From positions 20,896,001 through 20,960,000 of the forward strand of contig CM119372.1 of NCBI GenBank assembly GCA_051294905.1: DNA of 64,000 nucleotides, written 5' to 3'. The first letter of the stretch is position 1; the number at the start of each line of letters is the position of its first letter. Positions 4,692 through 64,000 of the stretch are shown here, piece after piece. This DNA comes from Botryllus schlosseri. Lineage: Eukaryota. The translations under genes were made by a program, and so were the position numbers. The notes below the pieces were generated by a model. It worked only from the letters and a program-made list of their open reading frames with translations. It had not been told where the DNA came from and searched no databases.

Positions 4692-4784
4692 CTTATTGTT
4701 CGGCGCTTTCCGTTTCTAGACCTCTACCTCCACACCCCTGCATATTCGTGTCAATACAACCGGTTCAGCACGGATTCTACTTGA

Positions 4785-20250: not shown

Positions 20251-20779
20251 CTACATTTCCTGAATCCAATAGTCATATATTTTACACCCAGACTAGAGGC
20301 AGCTTATTTCGAGGTACACAAATTACTCTAAAATCCACCCAAATATGTCGGATCTGATCGCTACAAAGGTTAATTCACAATCGCTTCACGCAATTTGACC
20401 ATGTCAATATATCCTATCGGTAGGGTAACTTATACTTTGTTCCGGAAGATGAGTTATACCTTCAATGAATCTAATAGTCATCTATTTCACACCCAAATTG
20501 GAGGCATCTTATTTCAAGGTACACAACCATCCGTAAAATTCAACCAAATGTGTGTGATAAGATGGCCTACTGCGACAATGCACGATCGCTTCACAAGATT
20601 TTACTATGTGAATATATCTTGTCGGTTGGGTAACTTAAACTTTGTTCCGGAAGATGAGTTATCTATTTTCTGATTGTAATCGTCATATACTTTGAATACA
20701 ATCAATGAGTGATGACCGATGTTCAGATATATAAACAATAATTTTTATTATCAACGAAAATGAAAGAACGGGCGATTAA

Positions 20780-21500
20780 TTTTTTTAACAATAAAGCGGC
20801 GTAGAACAATATTTGCCCATTTTCTCTGATGAAATCGAAGGCTTCTTTGACGTCCACGAAATGTACCTGATAGTCGTTGAAACATATAGCCCCCCAAGGC
20901 AATTGAACGAGTACGACATCCAGTGACCACCAGCATCATTGCAACCTTTGTGAGTTATTGCGGATTTCAAAGTATATGTACGGGTACTACCATCTTGAAG
21001 CAATACTTTGATCTTTTCGTCAATTTGAATTGACGTAGCGGCTGTTAAGGTGCCAGTTGATTGTCTTGCCAACGAAATGATTAGAACATTATAGAGATCG
21101 ACGTCAAACTATTTCTGACCAAGTTATTGGCGGAGCTGCAAACGCTGCAATGTCTGAAATCGATTTCGTTTTTGAAATGGTCCAAACAAGTTTGTATGCT
21201 TGTGCAAGAACTGGGTACTGGGACCATCAGATCTATTCTTCGATTAGTCTGCTTATAAATTGAATTACCACAGTTGCAGCATTGATATTAACGATCGACG
21301 CTCACGAATGGTACGCAATTGAAACATTCCAAGGCAGTTGATACGAAAGGAGATGATAGAAACTCTTCTGAATCCAACTGATCGCCATACACGAAATCGC
21401 AGAAATCGCATGCTTCTTTAACCGATAAGTCATAAAAATCATCAGCAATCTCCTGTCTGTGTCTGCAAGTGTCCCGCGGCATAGCTTTCACCTTTCAAAT
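20780..21500 (-). pseudogene. Decayed ubiquitin-specific protease (USP/peptidase C19) catalytic-domain fragment, copy 1
   Basis: In USP order across one stop and two frameshifts: FVYGDQLDSEEFL, CCNC and CSVC zinc-ribbon pairs, VLIISLAR, YTLKSAITHKG..GGHW, CFNDYQV..GQILFY. Confidence 0.75.
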
Positions 21501-23487: not shown

Positions 23488-23980
23488 CACCAGTCAGGGC
23501 ATCCAGCTCTGCCGTCGAAGATGCGGAAGAGAGGAGGTGAGTATCATCGGCGAACAGTGTGGTGTTCAATGAGGAGGTTTCAAAATGTCGTTGACATATA
23601 AGGTGAAAAGGACCGGTCCAAGTACTGAGCCCTGGGGCACACCACAGGTCACCGGGTGAGGAGAGGACAAGGTGTCTGAGATCGCAACCATTTGTTGGCG
23701 TCCAGTGAGGTAACTTTTCATGAGCTCAAGTTGTGGGCCCCGAAGTCCGTAACGCGCCAATTTCGAGATGAGAATTTTATGATCTACGCAGTCAAACGCT
23801 TTTTTTAGGTCGAGAAAAATGCTACATCCCACATTTCGCTTCTCTGAGATATCATAGTACTGTTCGGCCACTGTTAGGAGGGCATGAGCGGTTTGGTGTT
23901 TGTTTCGGAAGCCAAATTGTTGAGGGGAAATGACAGACATTTTGGCGAGGAATGAGGACAGGCGGGAGATGAGATATAGG
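23488..23980 (-). mobile_element. Duplicated CR1/L2 RT fragment
   Basis: Matches 19757-20250 (GVPQGSVLGP, DLKKAFD). Confidence 0.9.
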
Positions 23981-24510
23981 CCTACATTTCCTGAATCCAA
24001 TAGTCATATATTTTACACCCAGACTAGAGGCAGCTTATTTCGAGGTACACAAATTACTCTAAAATCCACCCAAATATGTCGGATCTGATCGCTACAAAGG
24101 TTAATTCACAATCGCTTCACGCAATTTGACCATGTCAATATATCCTATCGGTAGGGTAACTTATACTTTGTTCCGGAAGATGAGTTATACCTTCAATGAA
24201 TCTAATAGTCATCTATTTCACACCCAAATTGGAGGCATCTTATTTCAAGGTACACTACCATCCGCAAAATTCAACCAAATGTGTGTGATAAGATGGCCTA
24301 CTGCGACAATGCACGATCGCTTCACAAGATTTTACTATGTGAATATATCTTGTCGGTTGGGTAACTTAAACTTTGTTCCGGAAGATGAGTTATCTATTTT
24401 CTGATTGTAATCGTCATATACTTTGAATACAATCAATGAGTGATGACCGATGTTCAGATATATAAACAATAATTTTTATTATCAACGAAAATGAAAGAAC
24501 GGGCGATTAA

Positions 24511-25231
24511 TTTTTTTAACAATAAAGCGGCGTAGAACAATATTTGCCCATTTTCTCTGATGAAATCGAAGGCTTCTTTGACGTCCACGAAATGTACCTG
24601 ATAGTCGTTGAAACATATAGCCCCCCAAGGCAATTGAACGAGTACGACATCCAGTGACCACCAGCATCATTGCAACCTTTGTGAGTTATTGCGGATTTCA
24701 AAGTATATGTACGGGTACTACCATCTTGAAGCAATACTTTGATCTTTTCGTCAATTTGAATTGACGTAGCGGCTGTTAAGGTGCCAGTTGATTGTCTTGC
24801 CAACGAAATGATTAGAACATTATAGAGATCGACGTCAAACTATTTCTGACCAAGTTATTGGCGGAGCTGCAAACGCTGCAATGTCTGAAATCGATTTCGT
24901 TTTTGAAATGGTCCAAACAAGTTTGTATGCTTGTGCAAGAACTGGGTACTGGGACCATCAGATCTATTCTTCGATTAGTCTGCTTATAAATTGAATTACC
25001 ACAGTTGCAGCATTGATATTAACGATCGACGCTCACGAATGGTACGCAATTGAAACATTCCAAGGCAGTTGATACGAAAGGAGATGATAGAAACTCTTCT
25101 GAATCCAACTGATCGCCATACACGAAATCGCAGAAATCGCATGCTTCTTTAACCGATAAGTCATAAAAATCATCAGCAATCTCCTGTCTGTGTCTGCAAG
25201 TGTCCCGCGGCATAGCTTTCACCTTTCAAAT
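24511..25231 (-). pseudogene. Decayed USP fragment, copy 2
   Basis: Duplicate of 20780-21500. Confidence 0.75.
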
Positions 25232-39963: not shown

Positions 39964-41595
39964 TCACTGATCCGTTTTAGGAGCGCCAAACACGTCGGGC
40001 ATCCTTTCGATAGTATATTTATGTTGACTAATATACATAATAGGAACGCCTGGTACTTTCCGTATGCGTCGTTTCAGATCTCTGTCGCATGTCGCCACTA
40101 TGTAACACTTGTGCTGTTTGACTCTTTGCACCAAACAGTCATCTGCGTACGTCCCTTTGTGCAGGCAGGGCAGCCTTTCGAAGCGGGGATCTTTTGCAAT
40201 GCGCAGTGCGACACGGTACTTGGGTCCGAGTTTTTCCAGCTCGGCCATAACACAGTCTGTGATGTAAGGCGTGCATTTCGCGAATAGGCAGTCCATCAGC
40301 GATCTCATAATGTCCAACTTGTTCTTTATTGAAAAGTTGATGAAATTGGTATCGATCTGAAAGTGTGTAAGCATTGTATAGGCAATGGTATTAATATGGT
40401 CAGACTGCAAATCTTTTGCTTACTCACCAGAATGTGGTAAGGCGGCCCGAGCTGTTCGTTATATTGGAGAAATAATGCTGAAGAATTTTGTGGCACGTGC
40501 CGTTCTATCACTCCACCGCTCATCAGAAACTCTTTCCTCTTCTTCGCTTCTTTTTCTGGTTCTTTTTTCCTCTTTTCTTTAGCAATTCTGGGATCTTTCG
40601 AACTTAGCATTCGTTTCATTTCCGCAAATTTCCTGGTCTTTCTTGCCTTGCCCTGTAGTGCAGGATTCCGAATTAAATACGCTGCCAGGCGGCAACAAGG
40701 TTAGAGAGATTCAGCAGGATTCAATATTAGCATTAAACCCTGTTACCTAGTAATTGACTACGATGAGGGGTGGGGTATCTGAAGACTCAAGTTGAATCAA
40801 GCTATTTCCACCCCATCATAGCAAGCCTAACTCTCTCATGCTCACACGTCACTACAGGGCCACGGGAAGATCAAATGTTTTCACACGAAAAATCATGCTT
40901 TCGAAAAATCATGCTTTGTTAACAGGTCTGCTAAAGGTGCAGCATACCGTAACCTACTATTCGACTTTGGGATGAGATGATAGTTAACATCAGATATATC
41001 AAATTCTACTGAATACATACTAGTTGACACATGACAGCATGAGATTTTCGGACAATTTAAAATATCAATTTTATTTTGCCTGTCAGCTCACACCTATATC
41101 CCAATATGGAATATGTGTCTTGTGCACCTCAAGGACTATGCTGACTACACACAGGTGTGACGCTGACAACCGTCTTGGCCTGATTGGAATAGTTGGCCTT
41201 TTTGCCTGATATATCAGGGGAGCAGCGATGATTTTCCAAGTTAAAAGTAATTTAATAAAAAATATTTAAAAAATAAAACGTAGTGTGAGCACAGGACACC
41301 GATTCCAAACAGGCGTCTTGGCACACCAAATATATTACGCTAAACGTGTGGTACACCGGCATTCCAACCCTGCCTATATCTTTTCGTTTAATGGCAATCT
41401 TGTGTATTGAACTAACAAAATTTATAATAAACTGAACTGACACTGAATAGTATATTCATAGTGAAATGAACCCGAATATTTTCGTCAGCAACTAGAGAAT
41501 TGGAAGGAACATTGTATATCAACCAACAATCGTACCACAAAATATGACACTGTAATATGGAGATACCGGACTATTACAAGTTCCAGTCTTACCAT
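39964..41595 (-). CDS. FCF1: rRNA-processing PIN-domain nuclease FCF1/UTP24
   Basis: Putative ATG-only first coding exon 41595-41593 (ATG|gtaag), then 40652-40428 ([24 protein letters not shown]) and 40356-39964 ([45 protein letters not shown]). Confidence 0.95.
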
Positions 41596-43921: not shown

Positions 43922-44011
43922 CTGCACAGTAGGATATTTCATCTCAGCTGGCCATACTGTTGATGTGAGCTTTGGAGTTTTACTTGTAATGAAGCAAAAC
44001 TGCCTCGTGAT

Positions 44012-47000
44012 CAGGGCTGTGGAGTCGGAGTCGGAGGAGTCGGAGTCGGAGTTTGACTAATTTTCGCTTGATGGAGTCGGATTCGGAGTCGTGAAAACTG
44101 TAGTGGCTGGATTCGGAGTCGGAGTCGTGGAAAAAATACTGACTGGAGTCGGAGACGGAGTTTGTGAAAATGACCCTGACATCGACTCCGACTCCGGCTC
44201 CACTTCTTTATCATGAAAACAATTGCTTTCAGAGGTATCTTTAAATTACTAATAATAACTATAATAGGATTTTTATGTACCATCAATCACTGTTATGAGT
44301 GACGACACAGACGAGGAGCGGCCAAACCGTGCCCCACAGGCCAAATGGGGCCCGCGAGAAGGATATGTGTGGCCTGCGACGTAATTTTCGAAATTAGATA
44401 TATCACCAGATAAAATTGCCCGGCCAACCAAAATTAGGTTAGCCTGACCGCGAAATTTGATGGTGACTAAAACACTAGTTTCGACGCATTGGCGTAACGG
44501 AGGGGCCAGCCACATTTATCGCAGATCTTCGTATATGACCAGAACGTAGAATATTCCGTAGCAGATTTAGTTGACTTGAAATTTTCTCTTAGCACTTTGC
44601 AAGATTTATTGTCACATTAATCGCATTTAGTATTAGAACCCTTCCTGAGAATTAAAAATACGCGTTATTTACAGAATTGAGTCCAACTATACTCGCAATT
44701 ATATAGGGGAAAACGTGTCGTCCAACATGCGACTTCGTTTGTGCGCTCCAAGCGAGATCGTCGGCGATGAAACATTTGCACAAAATGACAGAGGCATATC
44801 CATCGAAACCGTCGATATTGCGATGTTTAAAACGCCAAATAATCCTATCCTCGCCAAATGAGCCCACTGCTATACAGAGCAGACATGGGGTGATTACTTC
44901 GTGAATGTAATCGATTGCGATTACGATTACTTCTGAATGACGCGATTACGATTACGATTACGATTACAGCAAAATCAGGAAGTAGTCGATTACGATTACG
45001 ATTACATTGGAAAAGTAATCACGATTACTCACGATTAGGCTACACATATTTTGCATCTTACAAGTTATATCGGAAGACAATATATGGATTGCGTTGAAAA
45101 GGCCTAATGAGATAACAACTTTCTTTAAAAAAAAGATGCGACATTTGGCTGTTACGTCATAAAGTACCCATTGCCCATTTTATATTGAACGATTTATCGC
45201 ACCCAACGATTTGCCTTCTTTCCAGGTCCACAACAAACAGGGATATCTAGACTAGTAGAGTAGTCTAGATATCCCTGACTCCTAATTTCCTAATAGGGTG
45301 GGAAACGAGCTCGAAGGGGACTCAAAAGTATTTCGTAAACCAACACAAATTATAGACTATTTTCGAGAGATTTCATGAACTTGGAAATTGTCTACGAGCA
45401 TCGCGATGTAAATGTCTCTAGATAGCTTGATTTTGAAATACATAGCCTACGTCTCCTCCCCATGAAAAAAGCATGTATAATTTATAGTAACATACATTTA
45501 GGCCCCATTCAATACCGCGCCACGACACACGAAAACACATATGCAGTTTCGGCCAACATGCGAATCCACGAACTGTGCTACAAATGAAAGACATTCGTCG
45601 AAACTTGGGGTATGTGTCCATTGTCAATAGCCGCGCTGGGTGGGCGTGACTAATAGTCCGGTCCTTCCAATCTAAGCCCCCAATGCAAATGCCACCCGGG
45701 CACCCACAGAGCATTAAAGATAAGGCAATTTGTGTGTGCGTCTCACGCAAGTATTAATGTTGGTCTGCTAAGTTTTGGCCATAACAATATCTTTTGATTA
45801 TATAACAGACCGGAGGTCTCGAATTAACATCATACCCTAAAGTAATTATTACAAGATGGGCCTACAAGATGTTATAATTGGGAATTACGTGCTCCCAGCT
45901 CTTCAGGTAAGTCAGATAATCGGGGGCTGAGAGAGGAATAAAAATGAATTGTAATATAATGCAATTACCAATATTATTGATGAAATTAAATCTTCATCTT
46001 GAAAATTAGCTACCCGATAGGGGCCCAAGACCAACGTTTGGAGTGGGGGATCATATTCGCTGTTTTCGTTCCATTTCTTGCTACAACCCACGCTGACATT
46101 GTATATAAGCAGGTGGCTATGGCGGCAGCTCCAAATGTTGAGTAAAGAATTGTGAAATAACGGTGCCCGTTTCAAGCAAAATCATATTAGAATAAGAGAA
46201 AGTGAACATACAATTCTGCCTGTAACTTAATACAGATAATGTAATGCAAGCGGCCATCACGAGAAACGGCTCGGTTATGATATATATGAGCAGCTGTTGA
46301 TTTTTAATGCTTCGTCGTGCAAACCGTAATGTTTTATTTGACGAGTAGGCTACAAAATTTCAAACTTTTGTCCGGTGTACGTTCGTAATACATAGGCGTA
46401 CTGCTCGCCAAGCAGCAACGGTCAAACTGCGTTTAACTATAAGCATAACATCACTACAAAAGTTACTATTTTAAACTAGGCATAGTGGTGATTAATTATC
46501 CTGCTGCGAGGTAGTGGCGTCTGGAATGTATTGATAACCAGTTCTTACAATCACACCAATGTTCACCGAATATCTAGTCACTATATGTGGATAGCTGGAT
46601 ACTTCTTACGCGATGACGAGCAAAGCTAATACGCCACTTCTGACGTAATAATGAGCAATAGCATTTGAAAATTTGACGTTTGTGCTATCATCACTAACTG
46701 GTATAATACCTCTTCCTTGTTCACGAATGTTCAGTTTATGTCATAGTCCTGTACAAGTCAAAAGTATAATCGTTCTTTCACAAAGAAATCGATTAAATAT
46801 GGGAAGCAGTCGATTACGATTACGATTACTTCTGAATTTTCTCGAATGTAATCGATTGCGATTACGATTACTTGAAAATGCTGTAATCGTCGTAATCGAT
46901 TACGATTACTAATCGCGATTACCCCATGTCTGATACAGAGACGATCCCAAATATATGAAAGAAATATATTTATTGATCTAATTCATTCATTACCTTTGAA

Positions 47001-48152
47001 AACATTTTGTTCTTCGCGCGACCAGGCATGACTGCACAATGCACAGTGCCACTCTACAGTTGCACAGAGTTTTCATGACATAATTGTTATCGATGTTGAA
47101 GCGTAGTCATATAAGATTTGTTTTCAATGTTACCTAATTCGGTTCGTTCCTATCGGACGACTAAAAAAAGGTTATCCACATTCAAATTGCCCGCGCAATG
47201 GTTCGTAAATCGCAGGTGGCCCTTTGAACGAAACGGTTGGCCAAACCTGACATAGATAGAATTGGGCATTATTTGCAATTCAGTTGCATAGAGGAAGAAA
47301 GAAGCAATATGCATCTTCGCGATGCAGTCACAAATTGAAGCGATTTTTGATATTATACCATGATATTGTGACAGAGCAAATATATCGTCTGGTTGTAAAA
47401 TTGATGCAAATATAACCAAACGCTCCTTCCCACTTGATAAAATTAAAAATAATTGTAGTGTAGCTTAGCTGCTTGGGTCGAACAAATGATTAAGAAAGAT
47501 TGCAAGTCCTAGTCCTTGAATGTTTGACGAAGTGCATGTAGACAAGACATATGCTATTTGAGAACTTCCTAAATTTCGTTTATGACAAATGTCTATTAGT
47601 AGTGAGAGTGTGTGTTGATGTAATCAGTACAGTGTGTAATGAGAATATTAGTAAGATGCATCTCTGTATTAGTTGCTGACTCATACACAAGAGCAACACT
47701 ATTAGGATATTAGAGAGTCCATGTTATAAAATCTTTTAAAATATGAAAGAAGGAAAAATATTTAGAAATGCATTCTTTCACGTTAATTGCATAGCGAATA
47801 ATTCGAGCTGTGCCACAATGAAACAATTTTGCATGCCATCGTTCATCATATGTTTGCATATGTTTATTGGTTATATGATAGTCATTTAAACGTCACTATG
47901 GCATATAATTTTCGAAGTAAATTGGTAATGCTGTTGGAGTCGGAGTTGTAGTCTGAGTCGGAAATTCTCTTAAGAAAATAGTCAGAGTCGGAGCCTGAGT
48001 CGGAGTCGGTAGTCGGTCAGTAGATGGAGTCGGAGTCGGCATATTGAAAATGTGTGGAGTTGGAGTTGGAGTTGGAGTCGGTATAATGAAAATGTTTGGA
48101 ATCGGAGTCGGAGTTGGAGTTGATGGCAAAATTTACCGACTTCACAGTCCTG
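44012..48152. mobile_element. Non-autonomous hAT-like element (ggagtc repeats) with nested insertions
   Basis: CAGGGCTGTGGAGTCGG..CCGACTTCACAGTCCTG; ggagtc arrays at 44020-44200 and 47935-48125; TSD not clearly preserved. Confidence 0.65.
44880..46932. mobile_element. Nested non-autonomous hAT element (cgatta repeats)
   Basis: CAGACATGGGGT..ACCCCATGTCTG; TSD atacagag (44872-44879 / 46933-46940). Confidence 0.93.
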
Positions 48153-49509
48153 GCTCATATCACACGGATAAAACTATTTATGAGCCGAAATTACGGTCCG
48201 CACCAGCAAGTTGCACCGGCGGTTTCCAACCTTCAATGGCCGTGACTCCATTTCCAATCTGAAAATCACCCGTGCCCCAGCTGATCACTAAGAAGGTCAT
48301 CACCTTTGCCAAGATTTACTCTCGGAAGCTGATGACGTTCAACATCTTCCCAATCCCTAGAATAATACGACAATCGATCCCCAGGTTTGGAACCACTGTC
48401 CAAACGGTCTTAGCCGACTCTAGGAGTAGGTCTGTACGTTATCTTATAATTGCGATTACAGTTGGACTTATTATTTCAGTGAATGCTGGCTATTTTTTTC
48501 GAAGGATGTGGACCCCATACTAAATTTAATATATAGGCCTATGCGATACTAAATCGCGCCTAGCGCAAAGAAAAATTTCAAGTAGCATACAGCTGTTTAA
48601 TAATAATATTGTTTATGTTGATTTACTATACAATCTTTTAGCGTACTTCAAGCCTTCAAAATTCCGGACATTTAAACATATTTTAGAATTTCCTCCCGGA
48701 CGCAGTTTGAACAGTATAATTTCCGGACATGTCCGAGAAATTCCGGACGTATGGCAATGACAATCAGCAACCATAGGTCATGCAGGCCAAGCATTTTGAT
48801 TTTTCGGTAGGGTTGCTAAAAGCAAGAAATCTGGAGGCAATAATCGCGTGAAGCGAGAAAGAAAATTCAAGTTCAATCAGTCTGCCACGAAATACTTTAT
48901 TTCATGGTAATTTTCAAATATTCACGAAAAAGTTTGGGGTCATTCCCCTTTCGCTGCACGTGGATAAAGCCAATGCATCGAAACTGTTTCTTTTTTCAGT
49001 CATCAATACCTCAAATTTCACGGTCAGGCTAATCAAAGGTTTTGTTGACCTTGTCAACCCATTGTGACTATTATTGTCTCGAAACTGAAGTGGACTTTCT
49101 AAGTAGTAAATTACGATATCTGTAATTGTTTGAGTTAGATTTGGCCGTGTCTCAGGGGCAGGTTCGGATAATTAATAGGAGGCAAAGAGAGTGACCGGGT
49201 ATATAGTCGCAATCCAGTTACCAAGCTACTCAACGAGCCTGGATTGGTGCAGCCAAGACTCCAATGAAGCCAATATAACCCACGATAGTTTGAGCTAGGC
49301 AGCGGCCAAAACGTACGTTATAGCCACTTCTTTCTGCGCTTATATATGCTTGTACGATTTCGGAGGTATTTGTTTTTATTTTAATGACTATAATCGTTGT
49401 ATTCTTTTACAATGTCGTATTTGAGCAATAAATTAAAAATGCGATTGAAGAACGACTATAATGTTTCCAGTTTATCGCTGTAAACCAGAGTAGCATGCAC
49501 CGATTGTTG

Positions 49510-52500
49510 TCAAAGCAGTTCCTTGTCATTGCCACTGGATTCTCCACTTCCGTCAATTTCCCATCCAGTAAAATTCAGTCTATCCCCAACGTATGAGGCA
49601 GGTCCACCACTTGGACCTGTAATGAAAGCAGACTTGTCCAACCATCAAATTAGTTAGTTGGCGGTTTTTGGGTATAGTTCTAGTTTTAGTTCTAGTTGTG
49701 GATTTTAACACGTTAGTACTAGTTCTAGTTGTATATTTTCCAAAGTGAATGGTGTTTTGTCGACTACTATGGTCGTTTACGCCAGGATGATGTTCCTTAT
49801 TTTTGATTCCGTATCGGCCGACTTTTATCACGGCCCACTTCTAGGCTTTTTGTAAGACACCGCTTATTACGCGGATGAGATGGGGAGGAGCATCCTAGAT
49901 AAAAGTCCAGCACTTAGGTAGGAATTCTGGGGTCGACATCGGTCAGACTCCAACCCACAACCCATTGGTGTTGTAGCTGTGGATTATGCCACCACTACTG
50001 CCACTTGAGATGAGTGGGTATTGTGACATTCAAGGAGCCCCGAGGGTTCCCGGTAACACCGGTCAAGAACCTGGGATCTAGTTAGTTGTGTTTCAGTTAG
50101 TTAGTTGCGGATTTTTGAGGGTCATTAGACCTATAGTTCTATTATTAGTTGCTATGGTTTCAAAAAGTGAGTAGTTGTATAGTTGCGCATTTTGATAATC
50201 CGCAGTAGTTGGTACAAGTCTGAATGAAAGTGATAAACAAAACATCGAACACCGCATTCCTTTGAACATGGTTCTTTGTATAGATCAGGGGTGGGCAATT
50301 AATTATCCTCGTGGACAAAATGATATGCAGAAAATACGTTGACGGGCCGAGTCAAAAATTTTAACCAAAAACTGCAGCGTATTGATTGTATTTCTAAATT
50401 GAAAGCAGTGAATTAAATTGTTGATACATTCTGCTCAGGGGTATAACAAAAAATAATATATTTTGCCGTCATAATTGAAAACGATGGCGCACACAAGACA
50501 TTTTGAACCCTTTTTTTAATCCACAGACGCGTTTTTGTATTAAGATATTAAAATACAATTTAAATACTACAAGCATTAGCTTGTCTTAGTCGCTGCCTCC
50601 CGAGCAGTGTGTGCAACTGTGCATACTTGGTGAAATAGCCTTGTTGTTGATGATGGAAATTAGAAGTGCTTCCGTAATTAGCCCCCCCCCCTTAGCCGAG
50701 TGTCTGTCTTCCTGTTGTTTTTGCAATAATACCGTCTTAAATTATACTCTACAGCGACCTGCTCGCCGCTAGCTAATAGGACTAGTTCACCTCTGACTCC
50801 AGTAAACAAGTATTTAGTAATCCGAATATTCTTGGAATTCCGGTCGGCGCCCCTCACCTTTTCTTTGCACATGCCCGCCTGTTCCCCGTTCATCGTTTGA
50901 TTACGAGCACGGAATGATTGGTCTTACAAATTACGGATTTGGAAACGTGTCAGGTAAAACTTTGAAGCACGGAGTGTGTAGATTTGACGATGGCAACACA
51001 GAAGTTTTGAACGAAACTATATGGAGACAGTGACTTTTTTGTTAGTATAATTGCTAGCGCGCACTTTGCTACATTGGCTGTATTTTGAAGATGGATTACT
51101 CGTATATGACGTAGGCCTACGTATGCTACTTTATTGCAGCACATAAATAAACAGGCTCCATAGTGAACGAATGTCCGGCTCAGTTTATACAGCCTATGAT
51201 TTTAGCCCATGGCTTAACATTCAAAAGTAAGTTTTATGTACGGAATTGCAGGTAACCTTTCGCCGGCCGCTCATAATCGCGTCGTGTCCGCACTTTGCCC
51301 AGGTCTGGTATAGATGCATGTTTTCATTTTGAAGTCTCTTTTTTAGATACGACTATAGTCTTGAATAATAATTTAGTATCACAACTCACCCACACCACAT
51401 TCTCTGTAACAACGCTTGCACTTGACAACTCTTTTCCAGTCTTCTACTGGTGAACAGTCGCTGAACTTGCAACGTGCTTGTATATAACATGCCATTCCAC
51501 GAGCGCCTGGAAATAGATCAACTTGCAGCAGAACAGACAGATTGCGGTAACCCCAGCATGTGCGTACTGCATTCCTTGTATATTTTTTCATTACATGCCA
51601 CATTTGGCTCCTGGGGACAGTCATGCTCTTGTTTGCAGAGATCGAGGCACCGAGAGGTCGATTCCAACATGTTTTCCAGACCTATTACAACATAACGGGT
51701 ACCTTGAAAGTGTGAAACTAGACACATAAAAGGTTTTTCGACTTGATACATTTCTTTAGACGTAATCTTGAATTTATACATTGCGGGAAACCATTTTAGT
51801 CAATAAACATATCAGTTAAGGTGAAGTGATTAATGATATCACGGTCAGTGACGTGTAAAATTACATGACCTACTTAGAATGACCATTAGATACTGATAAT
51901 TCGAGTTCTTATTCTATCCTCGCACACCCATCTCTATACTAGCCTCTTGCCCTCGCGCCATATCGAACGACGATGGTTGGTGGTTATACAGCGGAGATGA
52001 GCGGATTTGGAATTTCTATGTCCTAATCCAATCCAAATCCGAAGCTACAAATCCTAATCCAAATCCTAATCCATAACTTCTGTATATTCAAATCCGCGTC
52101 CAATCCCAATCTGATTCTATCTTGAAATTCAGAAAAATTGCTAATTTAGGCAAGGGAGGCATTGGAAATTTTTCTTTCACAACCAACAATACTCATGATT
52201 TAAGATAACTTGCATAGGGCTGTTCCTTTCATGTTCGTCGGCACCGAGTGTACCATAATGTACTGTAGTGTACCATAAGTACATTAATAACTGATCTGAA
52301 TAAAGTTTGTCGCCATTTGCCACACGACATCTCAATCTCCCAGAAAGTCGGTAATTCCAATCCAAATCCTAATCCGTGCTGAAAAAATCTCTAATCCTAA
52401 TCCAATCCAAATCCGACAAAATCTCACAAATCCGTTTTTTTTCAAATCCTGATCCTAATCCATGCTCATCTCTCATCCGTTATACAGTACGTTTCTATCT

Positions 52501-55500
52501 CTTCACCCAGTTGATTATGTTTACTTGCATTGTATCGTCATAACTACGGGGCGATTATTATTACTGGTATTTCCCGCTATCCCCGATTTACAACATTATA
52601 GAGTGGGCTAGACTAGGATACAAATTGTAAAATATAAAGTTCACTGACACCGTGGCCTCTAACAGACCACGGCAATGCAGTTTGTAAGATATTCACTGAC
52701 TTTATAAACAGTTCTCACTGACCTAATGCAACAATTTTGACTTGATGTTGAACTTTTTGACAAGGCAAAAATAATCGTCTTAGCCGCAACACAGTACGAG
52801 AATGTCGAATTCACATTTCATAGATTTCCGACTACGAGTGGCTCGTATAGGGTGGTACTACAAGGTTATGTACAGTGTTGCTGAACTATAGCTGGCACTC
52901 TTCTACAGGTAGGGTTAAAACAAACATGTTTAAAACATGGCCCTGGTTAACCTGTTTTTATTGTGCTTTTTAGCCATGACTTCACGAATGTTCTATTGTG
53001 ACGTTACAATGGATTTCCATTTGCGTCTGTCACAAACGGACCAAAATATCTTTAACCAGGACTACATCGTCAGGAAGCATTTTCACGGTCGGCGGTCATA
53101 ATCATCAGAACATCCAATCCCACCAATTATTATCTATATATACGCGCTATCACCGACGACGATTTTGAGGATTCTAGCCATGCCATATCGCACGCGTCCA
53201 CTATTTCGGGTGCAAATTGACCGTCGGCTCATAGCACATGTTTCTGGAAAGTATTTACACAATTATGGCATAATAATACAACTTTTGAAAAAAGCCCAAT
53301 TTTTTAAAAGGCATTGTCTTAAAACACTGTTAAAACATGTTTTTAGACAAATTGTTTTTAAAACATCATTTGTTTTAAATGCAACACTATCTACAGGGAT
53401 ACTATCTAAAGCTATAGAAACGCACAGGACGCCGCTAGCAAGCATGGGTAAAAGTGTAGCAGCCGTGCTCAATACTGCCCCCTGTGATAGCGATAACAGT
53501 GATGCTGAAACCTATGCAGGAATGGGTGTATTATGAGTCATCAAATACATACAGAGGTCTTTTACAAACGGATTGCAAATGTACATGTGCATCAGATAGA
53601 TCATAGACCTATATAAATTTACTATATACTAACTACTGACCTATATCGAAGCATGGGCGGCGACAGTCGAAGCAATTCTGCATTCGCCGTATCTTTGGTC
53701 CAGCAACGCTACAATTACCCTTGCAATTCGCATGCGCCAATAGCACACAGTCTTGCAAGAAAGGCGATCGCACATCAGCTGCAAATGAATATATTGATGA
53801 CGAAAAAAATGAAAAATATATAATAAAAACGTCGAATTGCACACTGCACACTGTGTCGCTACTTTGAAATGGCCATTCCACGTGTAGGCGATAGGGATGG
53901 TGCAAACCTTCGGCTCACATTCGTGTCCTTGTAATTCGAACCTCGATCAGTTGTAGCAGTCGTTCTCAAACTTCTTTGACACGCCCCCCCTTTAGGATAG
54001 TGAAAATATTCGCCCCCCTTTCTCGTCATTTCACAGAATGAAACCAGAATGCTAGCAATCCAAACTGATAGTTTGATGGCATGAAACGTTATGAATGTAT
54101 ATGAGAGAATTAACAAATATGAAATTCGGACTATACACAGAGCAATAACTATGAATTGGAGGTAAATCTCGCAAAGCGCGAATATTTTTTTCAGTTGAAG
54201 CAGTTTCGCGCCCCCCCCCCCTTCAGATGCTTTTACGCACCCAGTCTGAGAACCACTGAGTTAAAGGTTTGCGTTAAAATAACAGGTAGATCCTGCACCG
54301 TGAACAATGAACATATTTTATGATATATTAGTAATCGCAATCGCAATCGTAATCGTAATACAATGATCAAATCAAATCAGCATGAGCTGATTAAAATTTC
54401 TTGAATATCAACTTCATATCACTCGGTACATCAAGATAGAGGAAGAACCTATTTGTAACAGAAAACTAATATAATCCTTGCATATCGGCCAAATTATCGT
54501 GATTCTCGAGACTCGCATTTAGAGCTGGGCACAACGTTTCGAGTAATCGAATCCGAATCGATCGAGAAATAATTGTAATGATTCCAGCCGAGTATAGTGA
54601 GACTCCACTCTGTCGGTATTCTCACCTCGAGAATATCACAATCTACAAAAAGGTGCAGCAATATTGATAATTGAATTGAACTGAATATTTATCAGACAGC
54701 CGCCGCTTCAAGTCAGAGCAAGTGTTTCTCAACTATGAGCATTAAGCATACATGCCACTGTACGCAGTACAGATCTCTCCACCACGACCTCAGAGGATAT
54801 TATGGCTCTACAGCAGAACGTTTACACGCGGTTGCAGCTGGAACCCCTGACCTATCAATCGAGAAGCAGACGCTCTATCACAAGGGTCGGGAACCATTTT
54901 TGACAATAGAGCCTTATTGATTCTAAATTTTAAATTGTAATTTCCAAAGAGCGATACATCGATGTCAACTGATACGTGGCAATCGAACATCTGTGACGTC
55001 ATTGAGGCACGAAATTGAAGTCAAGGACATGGGATTCGTCGTGTGCGCCGCATTGTTTGCGTAAACACTGAAATGTTACACCGCCCACGGTAATCAAGCC
55101 AGTCGCGTTACGTGTGTGTACTAGGGTTGGATTATCCGGATAACGGTTAACCGATTAACCGCAGTTTTTTTTTAATATCTGATATCCGGATATAATTCTG
55201 CCGGTTAACTGGATAAAGATGTATCATTGCTAATTCGCTTTACACCTTTTGGTAAGTTTCAATAAGTCGTATTGTCAGTGCTGCGCACGGCCAATTAGCG
55301 AAATGCGTGTTGCCAATTAGCGAACGTCTGTGCACAATGTAACACGACGGGATCTCCCACTGAGAAGATCGCAAAATTAGGTCATTGATTGCCGCGCACT
55401 CGGCTGTCGTCGCTGGACTGATTTATCGCATCTCCAACAAGCCTATAGTTCCACTGGCTTGAAGAATCGCATCTGCAGTGGGTGCTGTGCACACTATACC

Positions 55501-58500
55501 ATCGCTGGCCTGCACAATCGCATCTGCATTGGCTTGATGCTCACGATATTATCGCTGGCCTACACAATCGCGTCTGCAATAGGCCTGGTACGAAAGATAT
55601 AATCGCTGGCCTAACCATCGCGCCTCGGGTCTAGCATGCGTTAGCTCCTATCTCTCGGTGGCTTGGAGACAATATGCCGTTAAGTGTATTCTGATTAGCG
55701 ATTGTGATTAAAGAGTGACATAGCGAAACTGAATGATATCGAATGATCGCAAACATGTGCGTTGCAATTGATTCCCGCTGATACTTGATTCGAAAAAAAA
55801 ACGTAACCCCCTCATTTTATTTGAAACACCCCCGCCTTTGTTTTCGGCTGGCTACGCGCATGATCACGTGAATTTTTCAAGGAGGAATTAGAGCGAGATA
55901 TCATGTTGGCATCAATTCCAGTATCAACTACTCGTCCTTCCAGTACTCCAAACCTAAACAGAAGAATGGTCAAAAAGGAATGTAAAGTCTTTGAAGTTTC
56001 TGGGAAACAACCTGCCAATTCCCTACGAAGCGCTGCTTACTATTCAGCCCATGTATGTGGAAACAGAAAAAGCATTCCATGCATGTGGTGTGTAGCCTAC
56101 TCTTTGTTACAAAACTCTGGTTCCAGCTACAGGATGCCACAATTGATGCATTGTGCATTCGAAGGAGGGCGTTGCAGAAGCAGTGAACATTAAATTTGCG
56201 TGATTTTTCTCGTGTTCGCTCGTACTGCGCGTGTACGTACGACGTATAGATCTACAATAACACTGTGTAATGATTTTGCGATCCATTTTCATGCATACCT
56301 CATGAAATCGATTGTATCACTTGGCAGTTATTATCCGGTTAACCGGTTAGATAAATTCCAAATATACGGCTATATCCGTTATCCGGACAGTCAAAATTAT
56401 TGATATCCGAACTAACCCTATAGTTTGCATGTGCACTCGACACTATGAAAACCGAAAGTTGACCATGTGACACTACAGGGTTCGGGTTACTTTTGCAAGC
56501 TACATATTTTTAATTTTCTCTTCGTCGGAGCCACGTGATAATTTTTGGAAATTAAGGCAATTGAAATGGGCATTTCGGAGCAAAATTAACAGTCATAGAC
56601 AACGAATGCGAATTAACTGTATACTTTCAGTAACTCGACTGTACAAGGAATCCGCACAGCACGCGCGAGTATAGCCGTACCTCAGTTGTTTACTGGCGGT
56701 GCCAATGACCTGCTGTTCAATCACAGTCAATCAGTTGTTCCAAGCCGAAAAAAAACTTCTGTGGCGGAGACCATTGTTGAGCGATATCATTTGGTTAACT
56801 TTACCACTCAATTCTAAAATTCTTCGGCGGTAACATAAACCCTACATTATTTCCCGCGTTGCGAGCAAGCTATACCTAACAATCAGGATTTAGGATGACC
56901 ATATTTATAAGTTGAATATTTTATTAGGATGCCACTTCCTATGGAGTCCATTCCTCGTCGATGATCAGGAAAACAATGTGGATTTGAATACTGTATCGTC
57001 ATAAAGGATTCTCCAAGTTCGCTTCTCTCTCTGATTAACCAACACATTGTGAAGTCGAAGATTTAATGGCGTGTTTTGTACAACGAATTATGCGATTGCA
57101 TGGTTGCCTACGCGATAGCAGCTTTGTTTTTGCAACTATACAAATTTTCTATCGGGCTGGACTGATTAGATTTGTACCATGAATACCCAAAAAAACTTGA
57201 AGGCGATTTTACCATTATAGAAAAAGAAACTATATTATATTGGACTGGTTTGTTTGTTTGATATTTATGGTGTTTCGACTATATTATTCATTTAACACCA
57301 GACCGATACTCTTTATTTTTTATTCCGTATTTACCGACTGTAATCAACGGGTTAGTATCGCATTTCCATATCAATAATATAATTTGCATCCCATGACTCG
57401 AAAGAATGCTTATTCTGTCGAAAATAAATACGTCCTGGGATGCATCAATACGAATCAAGCTCTCTGCACCTTCCGTATAGCTCAATTTATAGCTTTTGAC
57501 AGTCCATGCGAACGAATTAAGAATGTTTTCAAAACTACTTACTTAATTGAGTAGATTTAAAGTCAGTAAATTCTACTTCTACTTCAAGTAGTTTTAGGTG
57601 GCTCATGGAAGAAGTACTTCTACTGGTACTTGAGTAGATTTTTTCGTCACTACTTCTACTTTCACCTGAGTAGCTTTCTTGACTACTTTGACCACCTCTG
57701 CCAATCAGTCACATCGTTATGAGTGATATATTTCCAATGACAACAACCATGCACTACTCCATATTATAGGCCTATTGACTACTACTATCTTATACAGATA
57801 GGGCGCGGATACGTAAGCAAAAAGCGATTCTTGTATGAATTAGCTTCGTTACGTCGCATGTTCGTTGTTCATGTTCATGTTTGTGTTTACAGATAGCGTA
57901 TTTTAAAATTTGGTGATCCAACGAGCCAAAACAATATAGATATAGTTGGTCGCACAATCGTTAATTTTCGAAACGAAATGAATAGGGGAATCGACGAGAA
58001 AGGAAAGATCACATTGACGAAATATAATAACAATAATTTAAAATAGTATTACAGACAGTTACACACGAAACTTTATAGCCCAGAACGAGATTAATAAACA
58101 TGACCATGGCCACCTACTTACTGCATCCAAATCTTTCAAAACATTTGGAGCATGTGACATCTAGAGATGATAGTTCTTCAATTAGCATCATCTTCTTGTC
58201 ACATGAATCATTCCCTTCGCAGTTTCTCAAGCAAGATGTTGTTTCCTCTGATATTTTATCCCATGATGTTCTCCACGCATGGCCCGAAGCTGAATATGAC
58301 GGATTCTAAATCACATACTCTGAACTGCTTTGCTATTGTATCGGCCTCGTCAATGACCTAAGATCTGCAGAGCTCTTGAGAACAAGTGAATAAAGTCATC
58401 TCGACTCATTGTACATTTTGACTCTATAGTCAAGTCAAGGTAATTCGAGTCGAGTCAAGTCAAGTCAAGTCAAGTCACGAAGACGGGCCCCTGTCTAAGT

Positions 58501-61500
58501 CTATAATTATTATCAGCCAAACGTAAAATAGAATACGAAACTCTAGAAAGTTGAAACGAATTCATATGATGCAATGGACTATACCCGCCTACACATTCAT
58601 GAGATACAATTTAAGCTTGTTAAAATTGTTGACGAGTAATATAAACGTATACACTATATATTCATTGGATTTAAATAATACAAGAAGGTAGGTTAAGGTA
58701 TCGGCAACATTTTAGGAGCGAACCCACTCTAAAGGAAAATAGAATCATCATATGACCCAGGGGTTCTCGACCCGCATACGGCCCGCATACGCAACATCTT
58801 TCATTATGCACGCAATTACTACCGGCACAATATTGTTACATATTAATTTAGGTACTTAGCGCTCTTATCCCACCTTCTCTGTTTAGTTTGATTACTCATT
58901 CTTTGATGTGTTTTGGTTTGTTGATAAATGCTCGAGTTTAGATTGTTATTGTTTTGAATCGGTATTAGGCTGTAGTCTGGTTCAAGAAAATCCCGTTGCG
59001 TAGTAGACTTTAAACTTAAAGAGTGTTTCACTCACCGAGAATGGTTTGAATAGAAACGGGAAATTAAACAGGAAATTAAACGGCGGAAACTGGGTTTGTA
59101 ACTCTGCGCGGAACAAGGGATATGCTTTCTCAGTTATAAATGGACAACCGATACGTCCTATTTGTCGAAGAACAGCTGTCGTAACGAACCGTAGAATCTT
59201 AAAATGATACCATGAGATTTTCTTCCCGAGTTATACATATCACCCGACCTAAAAAAAACGTTGCTAGCTAGGTGTCAAGCCCAGCAATCCATATTTCGAG
59301 GCATTGTTAAAATTGCCGACGACGTTACAGACGCAGCGTTCAAAATTGCTTGGAAGATCGCTAAACCCAGGACATGTGCTAGAGAAGGTGTGATTCCAAT
59401 AAAACGTTAACATAATGTGCGAATATTCGCTGTTTCCGGAAATTAGCAGCAAGCACAACATCACCTGACAAATTTCGAAGCTACAGTTGTCCGATCCAAC
59501 CGAGACCAGAAGAGTAGCAGCAATGTCAGTCGATCTTTTATCGCATATTCTGAAACACGTTGCCGCGTAGACTACTTTATCCTATAGCATTGGACGAATC
59601 CACCGACTCCACAGACATTGCATAGCTAATTATCGGGGTGCATTTTATCAGCGTGGACATATTTGCAGAGGAGATGCTGGCAGGGCAAACGTGTGGATGG
59701 GATCAGTGGAACATCAACTGGATAAAGCTGACTTCTGTTTAACTATTAGTGCAGGGCCTCAGCCATAGAAGGAAATGAGAAGGGTTGATTGGCGTTCTGG
59801 ATTGTTTAGACATGACCCCGAACGCCAGACTTCTTCTCATATCATTGAGATCTCAAAGTGATAATGGCCTTTGTAACGAAAAAGCTAACGTAATTTTATG
59901 CTTCCTCGCTCACGCATTGAAACAGAGAGCTCGGCTCCCTGGTGGAAAATGCAACGATGCAATGCACGCACCATGAAGGGATTTACTTGCGCCGCCGGAA
60001 GATACATACTCTCAAAAAAAACAGCAACCAAAAACTTGCGAACGCTGCTTTAGATTGCACAAAAATGCACTAAATGCCCGTATACGACTGGTAAGCAGGG
60101 TATATGTAGCCTAAATTTAATATTAGAAAATATATACATTATACATGGTAATAATTTTCTGCGGCGTGTTTTGCTGTTAAATTGTGGCCCGTTATACAAG
60201 GGTAGTAGAGAACCCCTGATATAGCCTATTACATGCGACCCCTTTCTGTTTTCCGATGCAGAATAAAGTATTTCAAGGAATGGAGAAACTAAAAATAAGA
60301 GTTACGTAGGCAGAATCATAGAGAAATGTAACTACACAAAGTATTCCAAAATGATTGTTCTTTGCCATTTAAATTGCACTCCTATTGCGATAGCTGCGCC
60401 ACCAGTTGCCGAAGTCGCGTCTGAACCATTGTCTACTTGAAATGAAAAACGATATTCCGTTTTCAATATAGGCTACTCATATTACCATACTGCTCAAACA
60501 GTTTTTCAAAGCTGCTGAATGTGTAACTTGAATTGTGCAGCTTGCGCCTCGTAGTCGCAAATATTTGGGTTTTGATTATTATTGCACCGTAAGTGTTTAA
60601 TTGTGACACGACGTAACAGGTTACAAAACATCATTGAATGTTTCGAACCAGAAAAAAGCCAGCATCCAATCTTCGTTTCGATGACGAATATTGTGAGTTA
60701 TGGCGACCCCATACAAAGTTAAGGCGACACCACTTGGCATCGCGACCCACATGTTGGCGAGCACTGGGGTAATGTGATAACTGACCTTTGTGAGCAATCA
60801 AAAGAACAGAGATACATTCCTATTAGGTTACTTTACTACCAGTTTACTACAACGTAAGCTGCAAACTCTGATCACCTCGTTTGTGGTCCATTAGTTTGGA
60901 TTAATTTACCTTGCAAAGGTGAAGTGTCGTGCGGCTCGCGCCTCGTAGTCACAGCTATTTGAATTTTGATTCTTATTGCACCATAATTGTTTAATTGTGA
61001 CACGACGTGACAAGGTACTAAAAACATCGTTAAATGTTATAACCTAGAACAAAAAAGCATCCGTCTGCGTTTCGGTGATGAATATTGCGAGTTATGGTGA
61101 CTCCAGAAAAATTGAAGGCGGGTCGCGACCCGAACAGGTTGGCGAGAGCTGGGTTAAGGTGAGAATTGAGCATTGTGAGCAGACTAATGAAGAGAGGTAC
61201 ATTGCTATTAGGTTACTTTGCTACCGGTTTACCACAACGTAAGCTGCAAACTATGATCACCTAATTTGCAGTCAATTAATTTGTGATATAAGAACGAAGA
61301 TCAGTAAAACGCCAAATCATTACTCCAGGTCCTCACGAGTCAACGCATATTCTGAAACGGCTAGTCAAGTCAAGTCAAAACATTTTTTCGAAGCGGCTCT
61401 GCAGGCCAAGTCATACGAAACGGTTGACCCGAGTCATCCCAACATTGCTGCACGCGCGATACTAGTCTGGAAACAATGACGGGTCGCCGAAAGGGCTAAG

Positions 61501-61644
61501 CACAAGGTTGCCTCTAAAACTGTATTCAATTGAGAGAAATAGCATGCAGTAGTTACTGTCCTGTGGATATCAGTATCAGTTTATTACATTTCTGTCATAT
61601 CCATACTTACATGCAATAATAAATATTGATGCAGCTATCCTCAT
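49510..61644 (-). CDS. Predicted secreted Cys-rich protein (~230 aa, two internal repeats, vanabin-like Cys spacing)
   Basis: Exons 61644-61611, 58289-58122, 53778-53641, 51702 (or 51681)-51568, 51506-51390, 49616-49510. All introns are GT-AG phase 1 and the frame stays open: signal-like MRIAASIFIIASSGHA, 23 Cys, tail ..DGSGESSGNDKELL. First and last exons are the least certain. Confidence 0.65.
50286..51307. mobile_element. Charlie-like hAT MITE
   Basis: CAGGGGTGGGCAA..TTGCCCAGGTCTG; TSD gtatagat (50278-50285 / 51308-51315). Confidence 0.88.
51992..52479. mobile_element. MITE with aatcca/aatcct repeats
   Basis: gagatgagc..gctcatctc ends; 8-bp direct repeat ttatacag (51984-51991 / 52480-52487). 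Confidence 0.8.
52910..53389. mobile_element. hAT MITE with aaaac/gtttt repeats
   Basis: TAGGGTT..AACACTA; TSD tctacagg (52902-52909 / 53390-53397). Confidence 0.82.
55122..56420. mobile_element. hAT-like element with atccgg/taaccg repeats
   Basis: TAGGGTT..AACCCTA termini with subterminal motif arrays; TSD not preserved. Confidence 0.65.
57350..57700. repeat. Right-end copy of the 25233-28441 hAT family
   Basis: Matches ~27745-27830 and ~28215-28441, ending gaccacctctg. Confidence 0.85.
58758..60218 (+). mobile_element. Deleted Buster/Charlie-type hAT with transposase remnants
   Basis: CAGGGGTTCTC..GAGAACCCCTG; near-TSD atatgacc/atatagcc; ALDESTDSTDIA*LII at ~59587-59635 resembles the Buster/SPIN/GTF2IRD2 catalytic motif. 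Confidence 0.8.
60540..61265 (+). repeat. Diverged direct tandem repeat, two units of ~390-420 bp
   Basis: gcgcctcgtagtc..gtttaattgtgacacgacgt..ctattaggttacttt..aacgtaagctgcaaact starting near 60544 and 60938. Confidence 0.85.
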
Positions 61645-63069
61645 CTGGTAAATTTGACTCCTGAACAATCTGGATCCCATCGGACTTCACTTGGACGACG
61701 CTTTCTAGTAACGAATATACTTCAAATATAACTCGTAACTACTTTATTGGATAACGTATAATTGCAATCTGAATTGACACATAAGCTATATGTAATATAT
61801 TGACTATACTCGATTTAGTTTCTGTCTGATGGAGCGGGGCCTTCAACGACAGATAGAGAGATCGCGTATCATCTGCTGGACAAGCCCAGGTTGGTAGTTC
61901 TGTTCTAAATATAACTTGTGGAAGGATTTATGGAATACCCTTCATATACGGCATTTCCTGGGAAACATTTGCCCTGCGGCAGTAATGCATCTTGTTCCAT
62001 AATCCCCAAATGATACACTTGACAGTTTCGGGAATCATAATTCCTTGTAGTTCGACATACCTCGAAGGGCGTTGACGGGTAACGCCGGTCGCATGCTTGC
62101 AAATTTCCGCACTTATAGCCGATTGCAACAAAACCTGCAGAATAACTTACCATCAGTTATGTCGTGAAAGTTGAAGGAATTTTGCAAACATCACAAGCAG
62201 TATAGTACGGGGCAGATCGGCAAACTTCCTAGTCCGACTCCGATCCTGCTTCTTCAAAATGAAAGCCGGCTACGATCCGACACCGGTCGTACCAGAAAAA
62301 GTATGAATCCGGCTCCAATTCGGCTGCGAATCGAAACAATACATACATGCCAATACCCAATATCCTCTCAGGATCTGGCTAAATCCTGCACACTAGTCCC
62401 TAGTGCTCTGGCCGTATCAGAATAATACGAATGAGGACCCGATTCGCATCCTGCCTTATCAGCAAAAGTATGAATCCGGTTCCGGTTCAGTTTCGGGCAA
62501 ACAAAAAAAATCGGTCCGATATCCAGTCAATATACACTCCATGCTCCGCGCTAATAGGCTGATGCCAACGATCTCCCCCACATAGTGGTCGCGGGTGAAT
62601 TTCCGAGCTTGTTAGACCCCGAGGTCTGTAGCATTATAATAGTTGTTTTCAATCTCCAGACTGAAAGCCATAATTTAGCTATTGAAATACGAGATGATAT
62701 TGCTGCCTGGCATTCAGCACATACCGTCAAAGTGAACACACCACGATTATAGGTACCAAAATTTTACTACGTCACAATTCCAATTTCAGTTTCACTGATA
62801 CTTTATTTGTCGACCAGGTCGCTAACTGAAAATAGTTTGGGAGACAATGCTCTACAGAAATAACAAGATAGTTCGTGTTATCCGGATCTCTCTGCACACC
62901 AAAATCAGACTCATGAATATGTGATCACGTAGTTCTTGGTCGTGCAAGGTGCAGTCACTCGAAATCGTCACCAACGCTCTCTGCATATGTTCATCGCTAT
63001 GCAACATCGAGTTTTCTAACTAAACAAACAATTCGTCAATCAACGAATAGACTAATTATTCAGTGACAC

Positions 63070-63223
63070 TTATTGAGCGTCAGTTATAAGCACGCATCCA
63101 AACGCATGTACATTGTACAACGAGGATGATGATGAAGTTTTAAGCGCATATCGCTCCAAAGGACGTACAATGATTTGGAAGCGAAATTGCCTTGTACGGT
63201 TGTTCACACTGATTGTCTCTGTC
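63070..63223 (-). CDS. Possible terminal exon of an upstream gene (C1q/TNF-like beta C-terminus?)
   Basis: ttctag acceptor, then ..QFRFQIIVRPLERYALKTSSSSSLYNVHAFGCVLITDAQ*. The ending loosely recalls the C1q/TNF F-x-G-x-L motif. Confidence 0.25.
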
Positions 63224-64000
63224 CTAGAATTCGTACAAAATGTCACTCTATCCTCTATCATAGCGTGGGCCTACATAACGTATATCGGGTTGCCAATAAA
63301 TAAGACCAGCGCAAAGAGTCTATACGCGACAATGTAGTGACTGTCCGATGAGCCAAAACAGCTTTCTTCGGAAGAATAGGAGGGGGTTAACAGGGCGTCC
63401 AATACCCGGTTTGACGCCCAAGGAGGCGTTTTGTGAAAAAAAGTTTGGGAAACACTGATATAAATTTTTATACGTGAACAGCTGCGTATATAGGGTTGCA
63501 TTAAAAAGAGGTGCTTTAAAAATGCCGTTCGAAAATGTTTCTTTAATTATGTCACAATTGTGTAAATACGTGTATGGTATGGGCCTTATTACGACTATCA
63601 TTAGCTATAGTCGATGAATACGATACGGAATGGTTGGAACCCGTGAAATGGTCGTCGGCTCAACAGTTATAGTACGTATAGCTATATATCACTGGAACAG
63701 AATGGAAATTCTGGCGATGATGGCCGCCAACCGTAAAATGCTCCATGACAATGTTGTCTTGGTCAAATTTATTCCATTGTCCATTTAAGACATGGGTTGG
63801 AAATCTTTTTCTTCTAGGGTGCCATATTGATCCTATGTTTTCAATTGTAATTCTTGAAGAGCCATATAACAATGTCATTCCAATGTGGCATCACATTTTT
63901 ATTTTCGTGACGCTAATAGTTACAAAAAGCACACAATAGAAACATGTTTAAAAAAGAGACATGTTTTAAATATGTTTGTTTTAAATATTACCCTATGCGT

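Follow-up and report, generated by a model that had tools for sequence, protein, structure and literature searches.

A six-exon gene of Botryllus schlosseri predicted to encode a secreted cysteine-rich array, compared with vanabins and turgencins

The question raised by this locus is what kind of protein is encoded by six Cys-rich and accessory exons on the minus strand of a 64,000-nucleotide stretch of the Botryllus schlosseri genome (GenBank assembly GCA_051294905.1, contig CM119372.1, positions 20,896,001 to 20,960,000). This whole stretch is hereafter the window, and all positions are counted from its first letter. A sequence-only reading had offered two interpretations, a divergent tandem-domain relative of the ascidian vanabins or a new family of disulfide-rich secreted proteins. 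Our analysis leans, by somewhat better than even chances, towards an orphan secreted array of four three-disulfide helical hairpins that would serve as a binding scaffold with a probable role in defence or matrix, the structural part of this proposal being firmer than the functional part.

Gene model and cysteine-rich modules

The gene consists of six minus-strand exons within 61644-49510, which splice to 678 nucleotides encoding 225 residues (23 of them Cys) and a stop codon. Each of the five introns has GT-AG ends and interrupts the frame in phase 1, with lengths in order of 3321, 4343, 1959, 61, and 1773 nucleotides, and the lengths of the four middle exons are divisible by three, making these exons symmetric (phase 1-1). 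The frame is intact, with no stop or frameshift in 678 nucleotides spanning five introns, and the six-exon gene is probably real. The sequence-only reading had proposed this same in-frame, phase-1 model, and it was right in its coordinates, its frame, and the positions of the Cys motifs it quoted, with GT-AG ends throughout. It had also described most introns as full of transposons, and multi-copy repeats were indeed found in four of the five, intron 4 being a plain 61 nucleotides. The exons are referred to below as E2 to E5 where they need to be told apart, and the features of the gene are as follows.

61611-61644, minus strand: exon 1, coding part, with the start codon and the hydrophobic core of a putative signal peptide
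58290-61610, minus strand: intron 1, 3321 nucleotides, with an element that we take to be hAT-type and a tandem duplication
58122-58289, minus strand: exon 2 (E2), module A1, the end of the putative signal peptide and six Cys with gaps 3,5,16,2,5, net charge -3
53641-53778, minus strand: exon 3 (E3), module B1, six Cys with gaps 7,3,12,2,3, net charge +3
51568-51681, minus strand: exon 4 (E4), module A2, five Cys with gaps 3,5,7,7, net charge -4
51507-51567, minus strand: intron 4, 61 nucleotides, weak donor and good acceptor
51390-51506, minus strand: exon 5 (E5), module B2, six Cys with gaps 5,4,11,2,3, net charge +5
49510-49616, minus strand: exon 6, a Cys-free Gly/Ser-rich tail with Ser-Gly pairs, and the stop codon
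49375-49385, minus strand: overlapping polyadenylation signals ATTAAA (49385) and AATAAA (49380-49375), about 130 nucleotides past the stop

Scanning both strands of the window for stop-free segments with an acceptor, a donor, five or more Cys, and a permissive Cys spacing pattern yielded exactly the four Cys exons on the minus strand, all in phase 1, and none on the plus strand; in 20 strands of 64 kb simulated by a Markov model, the same rule returned a single locus. Its spacing pattern was set post hoc, with the exons already seen, and when it was dropped there were 3-7 loci per simulated strand compared with six and nine on the real ones. Because the pattern was set in this way, we place weight on the clustering of the exons, their common strand, their common phase, and their shared spacing.

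At the 5' end, exon 1 had the highest hydrophobicity (8-residue mean 2.95) of 11 candidate first exons in 58330-64000, and its donor was the joint best among the same candidates. A signal peptide would lie on exons 1 and 2, and the protein would be secreted. The start is ambiguous, as a second in-frame ATG is present at 61680 besides the one at 61644, and the AG acceptor immediately 5' of ATG 61644 may serve in trans-splicing. An extra exon candidate near 60400 was dropped, as it had no Cys and no fitting donor was seen. The end of exon 4, at the intron 4 donor, mirrors the end of exon 2, and short introns do occur here, since the FCF1 gene in the same window has a 71-nucleotide intron (40427-40357).

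All four Cys exons share a layout of three Cys, a long loop, and then Cys again, and three of the four go on as C-x2-C-x3/5-C. The best pairings are E2 with E4 and E3 with E5 (judged by eye; full-shuffle counts of 72 and 74 of 2000), and no single exon pair was significant in shuffles with Cys positions fixed. Matches across module types (E2-E3 and E2-E5) were also seen in local alignments and are not significant alone. At the DNA level, the expected exon pairs were not significant either (106 and 97 of 1000). When the two A-B halves were aligned globally, the score was reached by 11 of 1000 full shuffles and 29 of 1000 shuffles that kept the Cys. An A-B-A-B layout, in which each repeat would itself consist of two similar exons, is therefore modestly supported, and the two repeats of the sequence-only reading gain modest support with it (p about 0.01-0.03), while that reading had missed that each Cys exon is a module of five or six Cys. 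E4 has one Cys fewer than E2, which leaves the odd total of 23.

Three N-glycosylation sequons are present, at residues 38 (exon 2), 89 (exon 3), and 205 (exon 6), and dibasic pairs occur inside the modules only, with none between them. The tail encoded by exon 6 has a net charge of -4 over 34 residues and is without a transmembrane or glycosylphosphatidylinositol (GPI)-type hydrophobic C-terminus. It had been described as acidic, which it is, if only mildly, and its Ser-Gly pairs are a possible glycosaminoglycan site. AlphaFold predicted a helix-loop-helix for E3 (helices 5-17 and 28-43, predicted local distance difference test (pLDDT) 74) and, at low confidence, for E2 (helices 7-16 and 37-46), while a complex prediction for E2 and E3 gave no answer (score 0.01). 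These models suggest one helix-loop-helix module per Cys exon.

Relatives sought and families compared

The queries of the external searches were individual exons (34-55 residues) or exon alignments, which limits sensitivity. Pfam gave no match (none of five, and then none of four, exon peptides), a HMMER profile of the four exons had no hit at E 0.001 among 1,835,955,588 proteins, and exact look-up matched none of the four exon peptides. A word search with E2 scored none of three candidates, and one with E3 and E5 returned no candidate. Pattern matches in metagenome contigs were confirmed in 0 of 431 and 0 of 125 cases, and in the ESM Atlas, E3 matched one bacterial cluster at 0.76 and E2 had no usable match. 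Short-motif searches of 8532 Ascidia blood-cell proteins had unrelated entries alone among the matches listed (22 of 23 places in one search), and no paralogue was found in the window. By sequence, the PDB returned only weak unrelated matches; a sperm microtubule protein matched by E4 (E 0.001) was rejected, as the match arises from a duplicated chain and no stretch passes alone. In fold searches of the exon models, no match reached E 0.001 or Z 5. Disulfide hairpins are among the noise-level matches, namely a trypsin inhibitor of Veronica (E 2 and 0.35) and Mia40 (E 0.55) by sequence, and by fold acrorhagin I (Z 3.8, root-mean-square deviation 2.7, 44 aligned residues, rank 22 of 50).

The comparison with vanabins used six proteins of Ascidia sydneiensis samea (Vanabin1-4, VanabinP, and VanabinX) with gaps counted by eye. 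Vanabins have 18 conserved Cys (16 in VanabinX) and carry an N-terminal pre-sequence, and VanabinP is secreted (PMC9486056). The core of Vanabin2 spans 86 residues with 18 Lys and gaps of 3,3,5,3,3,8,3,4,6,2,3,3,4,3,9,2,4 (PMC9486056), a spacing with which the vanabin Cys patterns given in the sequence-only reading agree. Disulfide arrays along a helix-helix interface are used by vanabin (PMC13348028). There are several likenesses: C-x3-C-x5-C lies near the start in all six vanabins and also in exons 2 and 4, repeat 1 spans 80 residues compared with 86 for the Vanabin2 core, and the closing six-Cys block with a long loop (8-23 residues in vanabins) has a similar counterpart here. Vanabins are pre-proteins, as the product here is predicted to be, and the helical, disulfide-stapled core of vanabins resembles the core predicted here. 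The differences concern the defining features, as the repeats contain 12 and 11 Cys compared with 16-18 in one vanabin core, and both end in C-x2-C-x3-C, whereas six of six vanabins end in C-x2-C-x4-C. Gaps of 16, 10, and 12 (repeat 1) and 11 (repeat 2) exceed the maximum of 9 in Vanabin1-4, but the last loop is longer in VanabinP (23) and VanabinX (13), and gaps of 11-12 alone would pass. Lys makes up 7.6% of the core, compared with 18 of 86 residues in Vanabin2, although VanabinX likewise lacks the residues at the vanadium sites. Unlike in vanabins, two repeats stand in one chain. Neither Pfam nor the PDB gave a vanabin match at E up to 10 with single exons and exon profiles (34-55 residues), and the vanabin structure 1VFI was absent among the fold matches listed for the exon models, so that these two checks, which the sequence-only reading had proposed, brought nothing in favour of a vanabin when run on the exons. 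Judged by these defining features, the predicted product is not a vanabin; of the two original interpretations, the new disulfide-rich secreted protein fits, and the vanabin is disfavoured by Cys number, ending, Lys content, and the lack of a match in the exon-based searches.

What this leaves to a kinship with vanabins is a remote, tandem-duplicated relative, in which each A-B repeat would be a pruned core or the 12-Cys first hairpin of such a core, binding or reducing vanadium, copper, or zinc via thiol-disulfide exchange. The shared start and similar span would suit this explanation, as would repeat 1, which opens with a gap of 3 and closes with 2,3 in the manner of vanabin Cys 1-12 (in Vanabin2, 3,3,5,3,3,8,3,4,6,2,3), and the spare odd Cys; precedent for a departure from the standard core is given by secreted VanabinP and by 16-Cys VanabinX, with its acidic tail (a long Glu/Asp tract) and few Lys/Arg at the vanadium sites (PMC9486056). 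Given the Cys number, core gaps of 10-16, the x2,x3 ending, the low Lys content, the lack of any match, and a tail of net charge -4 without a long Glu/Asp tract, we consider it unlikely. The module spacing is, by our gap counts, as close to the turgencins as to the vanabins. Turgencins A and B of Synoicum turgens are amidated antibacterial ascidian peptides of 35-36 residues with a helix-loop-helix, gaps of 3,4,8,2,3 and 3,4,7,2,3, and nested disulfides (C1-C6, C2-C5, C3-C4) (PMC7024374). Three of five gaps in E5, two of five in E3, and two of five in E2 equal those of a turgencin, while E4 has five Cys; six non-adjacent Cys ending in C-x2-C-x3-C, a predicted helix-loop-helix, and cationic B modules add to the likeness. 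One can imagine a polyprotein from which turgencin-like antimicrobial peptides are released, in which anionic A modules (-3 and -4) would mask the cationic B modules (+3 and, in the closest module E5, +5) until they are cut apart, and the genes of turgencins are uncharacterised (PMC7024374). We nonetheless give this explanation slender odds, because no dibasic site lies between the modules, the loops are 11-16 residues compared with 7-8 in turgencins, the motifs of turgencins are absent, and the N-glycosylation sequons suggest a glycoprotein. Four modules, the A modules being anionic, also stand in one 225-residue chain here, compared with a free cationic amidated peptide.

Other disulfide-braced helices also resemble the modules loosely. 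Acrorhagin I (6UX5), the plant alpha-hairpinin VhTI (2CMY), and Mia40/CHCH-type proteins share a hairpin with cross-bracing Cys like that predicted here, but no sequence or structure score was significant and the likeness may be convergent; acrorhagin I and octocoral peptides have the same fold at less than 20% identity (PMC11896702). As such hairpins recur in unrelated proteins, Cys spacing alone cannot show descent. It is very improbable that the gene has diverged from some other family of helical Cys-rich proteins, such as GFR-alpha/Gas1, the anosmin Cys-rich region, or the rusticalin repeats. A fold search with the low-confidence E2 model listed chains of GFR-alpha2 (Z 2.3) and GFR-alpha3 (Z 2.2), values that are noise, and Pfam gave no match on single exons. 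Rusticalin of Styela rustica likewise has two Cys-rich repeats, but these are defensin-like and are followed by a peptidase domain (PMC7379824), which is not present here, as the gene ends in its 34-residue tail and a stop; a GPI-type end is also missing.

Expression and the favoured explanation

RNA was sampled from three runs, of which 3-13% was read, and aligned together with one contig set to 46500-64000 (17.5 kb). The alignment was dominated by intron repeats, the joints listed are repeat artefacts, and one run, X1, covers introns too and is DNA-like, so that it may stem from the source sample. RNA depth in the exon-free bin 59932-60515 was 0, 0.85, and 0.93, and that of the bin with exons 4 and 5 was not higher. 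Expression in the sampled RNA is weak at most, and the junction reads, which had been named as a check on the gene, neither confirm nor refute the model, as described below.

Under the explanation we favour, the four-hairpin array, a weakly or narrowly expressed gene would give a secreted glycoprotein of 225 residues (or 237 from the upstream ATG). A symmetric phase 1-1 exon for one six-Cys module may have been duplicated to A-B and then to A-B-A-B. After removal of the signal peptide, each module would fold as a hairpin with the nested C1-C6, C2-C5, C3-C4 pairing that has been measured for turgencins, and the alternating acidic A and basic B modules may pack together. The chain probably stays uncut because there is no dibasic site between modules, and the unpaired Cys could join two chains. 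The result would be an extracellular, protease-resistant binding scaffold, most plausibly for surface or blood defence, with cationic B modules perhaps contacting microbial surfaces or proteases.

Several observations weigh against this explanation. No homologue was found in any of the exon-based searches, so conservation does not back the Cys or the frame. The intron 4 donor fits only two of seven consensus positions, and no splice junction of the model is among the 15 of 74 RNA joints that were listed. RNA depth in the three runs was 0, 0.35, and 0.32 for the bin that holds exons 4 and 5 and is free of repeats, and this background depth makes a silent or decaying gene possible. The whole mature protein is acidic (isoelectric point 5.6), unlike antimicrobial peptides, and two turgencin sequence motifs (PMC7024374) are absent from the four exon peptides. 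The E2 model has low confidence (pLDDT 55). Finally, the 12 Cys of repeat 1 are roughly mirror-symmetric across exons 2 and 3, and they could instead belong to one long hairpin, with the opposite charges suiting A-B packing.

No such protein would be made if the gene were silent or decaying, or if the model had the wrong first exon or lacked exons. The odd Cys number and the short hydrophobic stretch could be read in this way, together with the weak donor, the background RNA depth, the absence of model junctions from the listed joints, and the absence of homologues. We regard it as rather improbable, because an open frame of 678 nucleotides has persisted across transposon-rich introns with canonical splice ends and a poly(A) signal, and because the view of the RNA is partial in both the runs and the joints.

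Surroundings of the gene and what it may mean

The large introns carry repeats of several kinds. Intron 1 contains a decayed 1.46-kb element (58758-60218) with 11-nucleotide terminal inverted repeats, near-identical 8-nucleotide flanks, and transposase remnants, and from the translation of the remnants and the repeat ends we presume it to be hAT-type. The same intron also has a 394-nucleotide tandem duplication with 79% identity (60535-61283). In intron 2, a nested repeat resembling a miniature inverted-repeat transposable element (55127-56395) has inverted ends separated by about 1.2 kb and encloses a 50-nucleotide tandem array. On the minus strand at 51379-51681, the exon 5 frame runs on without a stop across intron 4 and the whole of exon 4 (100 codons), which gives exon 4 a second open frame, probably by chance. 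Just upstream of the gene, an 83-codon frame (61908-62156, minus strand) has a good acceptor near 62136 and a weak Pfam match to Lgl_C (E 0.0012; 18.1 bits with a cutoff of 20; one of 150 frames scanned), and is possibly the last exon of another gene, or chance.

Further away on the minus strand, 39964-40700 holds the FCF1/UTP24 gene (Pfam Fcf1, E 1.3e-36). A 1039-codon Arg/Ser/Lys-rich frame at 10325-13444 (minus strand) has no Pfam match, and its last 160 residues match three Logan proteins at 57-63%; we take it to resemble ZC3H13. A 546-codon frame at 3075-4715 (minus strand) has a weak zinc knuckle (E 0.0095) and a Cys-rich end, and is presumably the first open reading frame of a retrotransposon without long terminal repeats. 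Reverse-transcriptase-like fragments at 18975-21108 and 23566-24839 have identical translations about 3.7 kb apart, which points to a duplication, either a recent one in tandem or one introduced by the assembly. No transfer RNA was found in the window, and Rfam gave no match in 44000-64000.

Our literature search, which had most subscription papers outside its range, found no description of such a gene type, nor of vanabins and turgencins together or of anything called turgencin-like. We see the gene as a new tandem variant, with the disulfide-stapled helical hairpin itself already known as a fold class that evolves repeatedly. As it stands, it would be an orphan secreted Cys-rich protein, of use for annotation and as a candidate for a role in defence or matrix. 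Homology to vanabins or turgencins would raise its importance, as it is open how vanabins arose and what they do, their purpose being described as still unknown (PMC11273300), and the genes of turgencins are those noted above as uncharacterised (PMC7024374). Vanadium levels are higher in Phlebobranchia than in Stolidobranchia (bioRxiv 10.1101/2023.06.02.543482; PMC8303170). The one-exon-one-hairpin layout makes this question of kinship testable. It is a long shot that vanabins, turgencins, and the present gene all descend from one ascidian three-disulfide hairpin module, here one symmetric exon, but if that were true, this would be the first gene structure of a turgencin-type module, and the gene would be a living intermediate, showing how exon duplication turned a defence-peptide module into the vanadium-handling vanabins.

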